Source: Escherichia coli
GTDB taxonomy: Bacteria; Pseudomonadota; Gammaproteobacteria; Enterobacterales; Enterobacteriaceae
Strand: one strand, 5' to 3'
NCBI RefSeq assembly: GCF_002854065.1
Contig: NZ_CP024147.1
Length of the DNA: 64,000 bases
Shown: one piece after another, positions 55,737 through 56,051 of the stretch
Numbering within the stretch: the first letter of the stretch is position 1
How the letters are laid out: each line of letters opens with the position of its first letter
Made by a program: the position numbers and the translations under genes
Notes under the pieces: model-generated
What the model saw: the letters and a program-made list of their open reading frames with translations, nothing else
Told to the model about the DNA's origin: nothing
Database searches by the model: none

Positions 55737-56051
55737 TTGGGGCCAAAACTGTCCATATCATAAATAAGTTACGTATTTTTTCTCAAGCATAAAAATATTA
55801 TAAAACGACAAAAAGCATCTAACTGTTTGATATGTAAATCATTTCTCTTGTAAATTAATTTCACATCACCTCCGCTAAATGTAAAGCTAACGTTTCTGTG
55901 TCTCGAAGCAACTTCCTCATTCTTCTCTCCAAAAACCACCTCATGCAATATAAAAATCTATAAATAAAGATAACAATAGAATATAAAGCCAACAAATAAA
56001 CTGAAAAAGTTTGTGCGCGATGCTTTCCTCTATGAGTCAAAATGGCCCCAA
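55737..56051. promoter_or_regulatory. fimS invertible promoter element, apparently in the OFF orientation
   Basis: 9 bp inverted repeats TTGGGGCCA (55737-55745) and TGGCCCCAA (56043-56051); the internal sigma70-like promoter (TTGAGA-18 bp-TATGAT) reads on the minus strand, away from fimA. Confidence 0.8.

Follow-up and report, generated by a model that had tools for sequence, protein, structure and literature searches.

In the stretch of Escherichia coli DNA analysed here (64,000 nucleotides, referred to below as the window), the type 1 fimbrial phase switch, fimS, is almost certainly in the OFF orientation as assembled. Judged by its sequence, the segment 55737-56051 is the E. coli fimS element; it is located between fimE (which ends at 55689) and fimA (which starts at 56171), in an intergenic region of 481 bp, and it measures 315 bp, including its repeats, with a GC content of 32% over the whole element. 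The OFF orientation, which an earlier note had proposed from the position of a promoter-like site, is backed by in silico BstUI and SnaBI digests, by the colinearity of the element with that of MG1655, by the end of the switch at which a Fis site lies, and by the signature of a Rho-dependent terminator. The relevant features are as follows:

54014-54616, plus strand: fimB, a tyrosine-type DNA invertase acting in both switching directions (200-aa ORF; NCBIfam NF007370)
55093-55689, plus strand: fimE, a tyrosine-type DNA invertase acting mainly from ON to OFF (198-aa ORF; NCBIfam NF007371)
55737-55745: IRL, the left 9-bp inverted repeat TTGGGGCCA, the fimE-proximal recombination site (read directly; aligns with the MG1655 IRL)
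55746-56042: the invertible core of fimS, 297 bp, almost certainly OFF as assembled (from MG1655 colinearity and in silico BstUI and SnaBI digests)
55786..55781 and 55762..55757, minus strand: PfimA promoter-like site directed toward fimE, with a -35 hexamer TTGAGA, an 18-nt spacer and a -10 hexamer TATGAT
55770-55775: SnaBI site TACGTA, asymmetrically placed and used in a published orientation assay
55909-55948, plus strand (the fimE sense strand): C-rich, G-poor stretch with 16 C and 1 G in 40 nt (sliding C/G count)
56016-56019: BstUI site CGCG, unique in the OL20/OL4 amplicon, on which a published assay relies
56034-56038: HinfI site GAGTC, inside the switch near IRR
56043-56051: IRR, the right 9-bp inverted repeat TGGCCCCAA, the fimA-proximal recombination site (read directly; aligns with the MG1655 IRR)
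56171-56725, plus strand: fimA, which encodes the major subunit of type 1 fimbriae and opens the fimAICDFGH operon (184-aa ORF; NCBIfam NF011741)

The genes on either side are those of a fim locus. The products of fimB and fimE match their NCBIfam models over the full length (NF007370 with 458 bits and NF007371 with 452 bits, respectively), and both are 100% identical to the MG1655 (K-12) proteins. The fimA product scores 187 bits against the FimA equivalog model NF011741, for which the cutoff is 140; this allele encodes 184 aa, as against 182 aa in MG1655. Downstream of fimA come fimI, fimC, fimD, fimF, fimG and fimH, in the same order as in the best-matching annotated genome.

The 9-bp inverted repeats that the earlier note had placed at the boundaries of the element were found there, and IRL and IRR are perfect reverse complements of one another, each 9-mer occurring only once in the 64-kb window. 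An inverted-repeat scan nevertheless returned other pairs of similar quality within 800 bp, so a 9-bp repeat is not unusual in this region. The importance of the repeats, and of the promoter match described below, therefore comes from their correspondence to the characterised K-12 switch rather than from statistical rarity. The K-12 fim switch was reportedly the subject of Abraham et al. 1985 and Klemm 1986.

The comparison with fimS of E. coli K-12 MG1655 (NC_000913.3, between fimE, b4313, and fimA, b4314) reveals the same repeats in the same location and the same orientation. The two sequences are colinear, with a mean column identity of 98% over an aligned region of 501 bp, and the switch taken separately is ~97% identical; given this level of identity, the binding sites for IHF, Lrp, Fis and H-NS, proteins that help the switch to invert, have presumably been kept. 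The SnaBI, BstUI and HinfI sites are common to both sequences, as are the sizes of the OFF fragments. The differences consist of scattered SNPs, including one that gives TTGACA at 56101-56106 where K-12 has TTTACA, and of a single 1-bp indel within the switch, which is 315 bp long in the window and 314 bp in K-12. This indel lies in a run of A just inside IRL (55746-55749), which reads AAAA in the window and AAA in MG1655.

The original argument for the OFF orientation was based on a minus-strand sigma70-like promoter near the fimE-proximal repeat, facing away from fimA. Such a site does exist: TTGAGA-18-TATGAT agrees with the consensus at 10 of 12 positions, has the top score of the promoter scan between 55600 and 56250, and has a -10 hexamer that ends 12 bp from the inner edge of IRL. 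The companion claim, that no comparable promoter faces fimA from the fimA-proximal end, also holds, in that the scan found no plus-strand promoter-like site from 55857 up to the fimA start codon (ATG at 56171); on this strand, it picked up only a weaker match in the middle of the switch (55827-55856, TTGATA-18-TAAATT, 9/12). However, the scan returned 4 sites in total, compared with 2.0 +/- 1.3 in shuffled versions of this AT-rich region, which is not above chance. Taken alone, the consensus promoter match is a weak argument for OFF, and it is for this reason that the orientation was checked by calibrated published assays.

With its 10/12 consensus, the site lies at the expected end of fimS, in a geometry that is in line with the published assays and with the position of the Fis site. 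It would correspond to the PfimA reportedly mapped by Olsen & Klemm 1994, an identification that also rests on the restriction-assay geometry. The literature search returned no fimA start site or -10/-35 hexamers mapped at the sequence level, reviews showing the promoter only schematically; from the position of the -10 hexamer, we infer only a minus-strand start of fimA transcription at ~55751-55749. Between IRR and fimA, the window also contains the perfect -35 hexamer TTGACA at 56101-56106 mentioned above. No acceptable -10 partner is present 16-18 nt downstream of it, and there is therefore no evidence here of a switch-independent fimA promoter.

For the in silico assays, an ON version was constructed by inverting 55746-56042 exactly between the repeats. 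In the BstUI assay with primers OL4 and OL20, OFF gives 539+187 bp and ON gives 433+293 bp (PMC9993118). Both primers map in the window, and the predicted digest is 540+188 bp for the sequence as assembled and 293+435 bp for the flipped version. In the SnaBI assay, which uses an amplicon of ~601 bp, OFF gives 440+161 bp and ON gives 403+198 bp (PMC11724981). With the primers CAGTAATGCTGCTCGTTTTGCCG and CAGAGCCGACAGAACAACG, the assembled sequence of the window yields 162+440 bp and the flipped one 405+197 bp; SnaBI digestion, which the earlier note had put forward as a check, thus produces the OFF pattern of PMC11724981 when carried out in silico. The SnaBI site itself had been placed at 55771-55776, which is one base off, its real position being further left, at 55770-55775. 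For HinfI, the primers AGTAATGCTGCTCGTTTTGC and GACAGAGCCGACAGAACAAC are predicted to give 423+180 bp in the OFF state and 139+464 bp in the ON state.

The MG1655 sequence (NC_000913.3), when digested in silico with BstUI and SnaBI, gives the same OFF fragments as the window. The predicted and published fragment sizes are 1-2 bp apart, and since MG1655 shows the same offset, this difference comes from the authors' way of counting. No publication was found that says outright that fimS is OFF in the MG1655 reference, the papers describing the switch in general terms; the assignment of MG1655 to OFF is made here because its BstUI and SnaBI digests have the OFF sizes.

Two other lines of evidence are independent of restriction sites. 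A Fis site in fimS has been described as promoter-distal (PMC9993118). The primers of the probe for this promoter-distal site map at 55936-55955 (plus strand) and 56050-56070 (minus strand), beside IRR and the flank on the fimA side; the switch therefore has its promoter-distal end next to fimA, and its promoter end is the fimE-proximal one. The other line concerns the transcript of fimE. The segment 55909-55948 is the strongest C-rich, G-poor stretch, and we take it as a candidate for the rut region of the Rho-dependent, phase-variable terminator of fimE, after Hinde et al. 2005. A Rho-dependent terminator in fimS is reported to shorten the fimE transcript in the OFF orientation only (PMC2647292). 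The presence of a C-rich stretch on the fimE sense strand would be consistent with the terminator expected in the OFF state.

The orientation of the switch was also surveyed in 5426 complete E. coli genomes, with the 601-bp region as the query in both its assembled and its flipped versions. The region is colinear with the window (OFF) in 4456 genomes, while 248 match the version inverted in silico between the repeats (ON); the window thus shares its orientation with ~95% of complete E. coli genomes, ~5% having been assembled ON. One of the 248, H27 (NZ_CP189662.1), matches the flipped 601 bp in a single piece with 100% identity. Since H27 carries the identical allele in the ON orientation, the allele found in the window can invert and is not obviously locked.

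The survey also brought to light a group of genomes (H1-H10 and H26, e.g., NZ_CP060969.1) that carry an IS1 insertion within the region equivalent to 55600-56200. These genomes are otherwise 100% identical to the 601-bp region, and both orientations of the switch are represented among them. The region from fimE through fimS to fimA would be disrupted by such an insertion, of which the window is free. On a larger scale, the best complete RefSeq E. coli match to the 24.5 kb at 39500-64000 has ~98.2% identity over 97% of the length. In the absence of a closer match, the source strain, or the combination of this island with this fim locus, is absent from this collection of complete genomes.

Could the switch nevertheless be ON as assembled, with the true fimA promoter elsewhere and TTGAGA/TATGAT a chance match in AT-rich DNA? 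The promoter-like matches in the region are indeed not above chance, and a weak plus-strand match is available at 55827-55856. Against this, both in silico restriction assays give the OFF pattern and give the ON pattern only when the core is flipped, the end that the Fis footprint marks as promoter-distal adjoins fimA, and the orientation is that of MG1655 and of 95% of complete genomes, so that the ON reading has next to no chance of being correct. A different question is what the orientation says about the cells. The sequenced population might have been a substantial mixture of ON and OFF in which the assembler took one path, and the orientation would then reveal little. In support of this idea, fimS inverts at a measurable frequency and populations in static growth are mixed (PMC2978726), and the ~5% of complete genomes assembled ON could be taken in the same sense. 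Yet a consensus normally follows the majority, which makes of the mixture a caveat rather than a true alternative, and an unlikely one. We infer that the sequenced cells were in a mixed state, and the earlier note was right to remark that a single assembly reflects no more than the majority state of the population.

A further explanation for an OFF assembly would be that the switch is locked. In O157:H7, the fim switch is locked OFF by a 16-bp deletion in fimS, and recombinase-defective strains provide another precedent; in EPEC E2348/69, the fim switch is held OFF by Fis (PMC9096935). The assembled orientation of the window is likewise OFF, its element has 315 bp rather than 314, and the added A, which would be the possible cause of the lock, is immediately inside IRL, in the inner half-site, where FimB and FimE bind, their half-sites flanking the repeats (PMC9993118). 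In contrast to the locked-OFF switches, however, the window has no deletion relative to K-12, both of its repeats are perfect, its recombinases are intact and identical to those of K-12, and the identical allele is ON in H27. Moreover, the AAAA allele is found in ~655 of the 5426 complete genomes (~12%) and inverts at least as often as the AAA allele: ON-type junctions, counted with allele-specific queries of 48 and 47 nt, occur in ~35 of 655 AAAA genomes (5.3%) and in 155 of 3956 AAA genomes (3.9%), a rough count that ignores phylogeny (Fisher p = 0.09). A locked switch is thus very improbable, and this reading was dropped on the grounds of the perfect repeats, the K-12-identical recombinases and the identical allele that is ON in H27.

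The same counts bear on the converse possibility, namely, that the extra A inside IRL slightly biases switching toward ON in the ~12% of genomes with AAAA. The difference between the two alleles is non-significant, and phylogeny and culture history confound it, which leaves such a bias highly doubtful; nor do these rough, phylogeny-blind junction counts contain any sign of locking or of a strong bias of the AAAA allele. The 315-bp AAAA allele is therefore best described as common and with no clear functional signature.

The OFF orientation can be placed within the known mechanism of fimbrial phase variation. FimE drives switching from ON to OFF and dominates FimB. The two proteins bind to half-sites flanking both repeats and exchange strands within the repeats, which results in inversion; when the switch is ON, transcription from the promoter runs across IRR into fimA, and when it is OFF, the promoter faces the fimE 3' end, fimAICDFGH is not expressed and the fimE mRNA is truncated by the terminator in fimS (PMC9993118, PMC2647292, PMC11316696). 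In the window, the tyrosine recombinases FimB and FimE would accordingly be expected to invert the 315-bp fimS by site-specific recombination within the 9-bp repeats. With the switch OFF, the fimA promoter would lie at the fimE-proximal end and fire toward fimE, fimAICDFGH would be left without a promoter, and, as predicted from the sequence, no type 1 fimbriae would be made. The Rho-dependent terminator inside fimS would face the fimE transcript in this state and shorten it. Most cells of a FimE-expressing culture would then be OFF, and the switch looks fully competent to flip. As to PfimA transcription into fimE in the OFF state, nothing usable was found in the literature. In aerated cultures of clinical isolates, only the OFF orientation was found (PMC2978726). 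The predominance of OFF among the assemblies (~95%) is explained by this observation, together with the dominance of FimE over FimB.

Similar arrangements exist in other genera. The fimS of Klebsiella, with FimB, FimE and FimK, the mrp switch of Proteus, with MrpI, and the flagellar switch of C. difficile all follow the same logic, in which a promoter located on a short segment flanked by inverted repeats is flipped by a tyrosine recombinase encoded alongside. These systems are analogues, whereas the window contains the E. coli fim switch itself, with a near-identical sequence.

Upstream of the fim locus, the window contains leuX, the gene of tRNA-Leu(CAA), at 8360-8444, with a P4-type integrase directly behind it (8607-9899); this pair marks where an island of ~40 kb begins, which reaches toward nanS, nanM, nanC and fimB. 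The rare UUG codon, which is read by leuX, occurs 6 times in fimB and once in fimE. The decoding of UUG by leuX has been linked to the expression of FimB. The window also contains a type I restriction-modification operon (hsdR at 10230-13754, hsdM at 13798-15402 and hsdS at 15402-16778). Behind it, and oriented the same way, lie an AAA_21/AAA_15 ATPase (16775-18481) and a 388-aa ORF (18481-19647) that lacks a Pfam match. The latter two, which occupy a stretch of low GC (0.38-0.40), may form a defence module of two genes that accompanies the restriction-modification system. On the minus strand are a DpnII/MboI-type restriction endonuclease (19676-20848), a 689-aa ORF inside the island (22334-24403) with no Pfam match at E <= 1e-5, and an OLD-family ATPase-TOPRIM protein (38890-40674) beside a UvrD-type helicase (37086-39005). 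Gabija-like anti-phage systems typically have a gene pair of this kind (37086-40674 here).

The fim switch of the window is a canonical one in its commonest state, which is already known and ordinary. MG1655 and ~95% of complete E. coli genomes are OFF as well, so no new biology is involved, and the relevance of the finding is limited to annotation: the fim operon should be marked as disconnected from its promoter (phase OFF) but phase-variable, not defective. Analyses of expression or of motifs near fimA should take into account that the promoter sits at the end of the switch remote from fimA and on the other strand.
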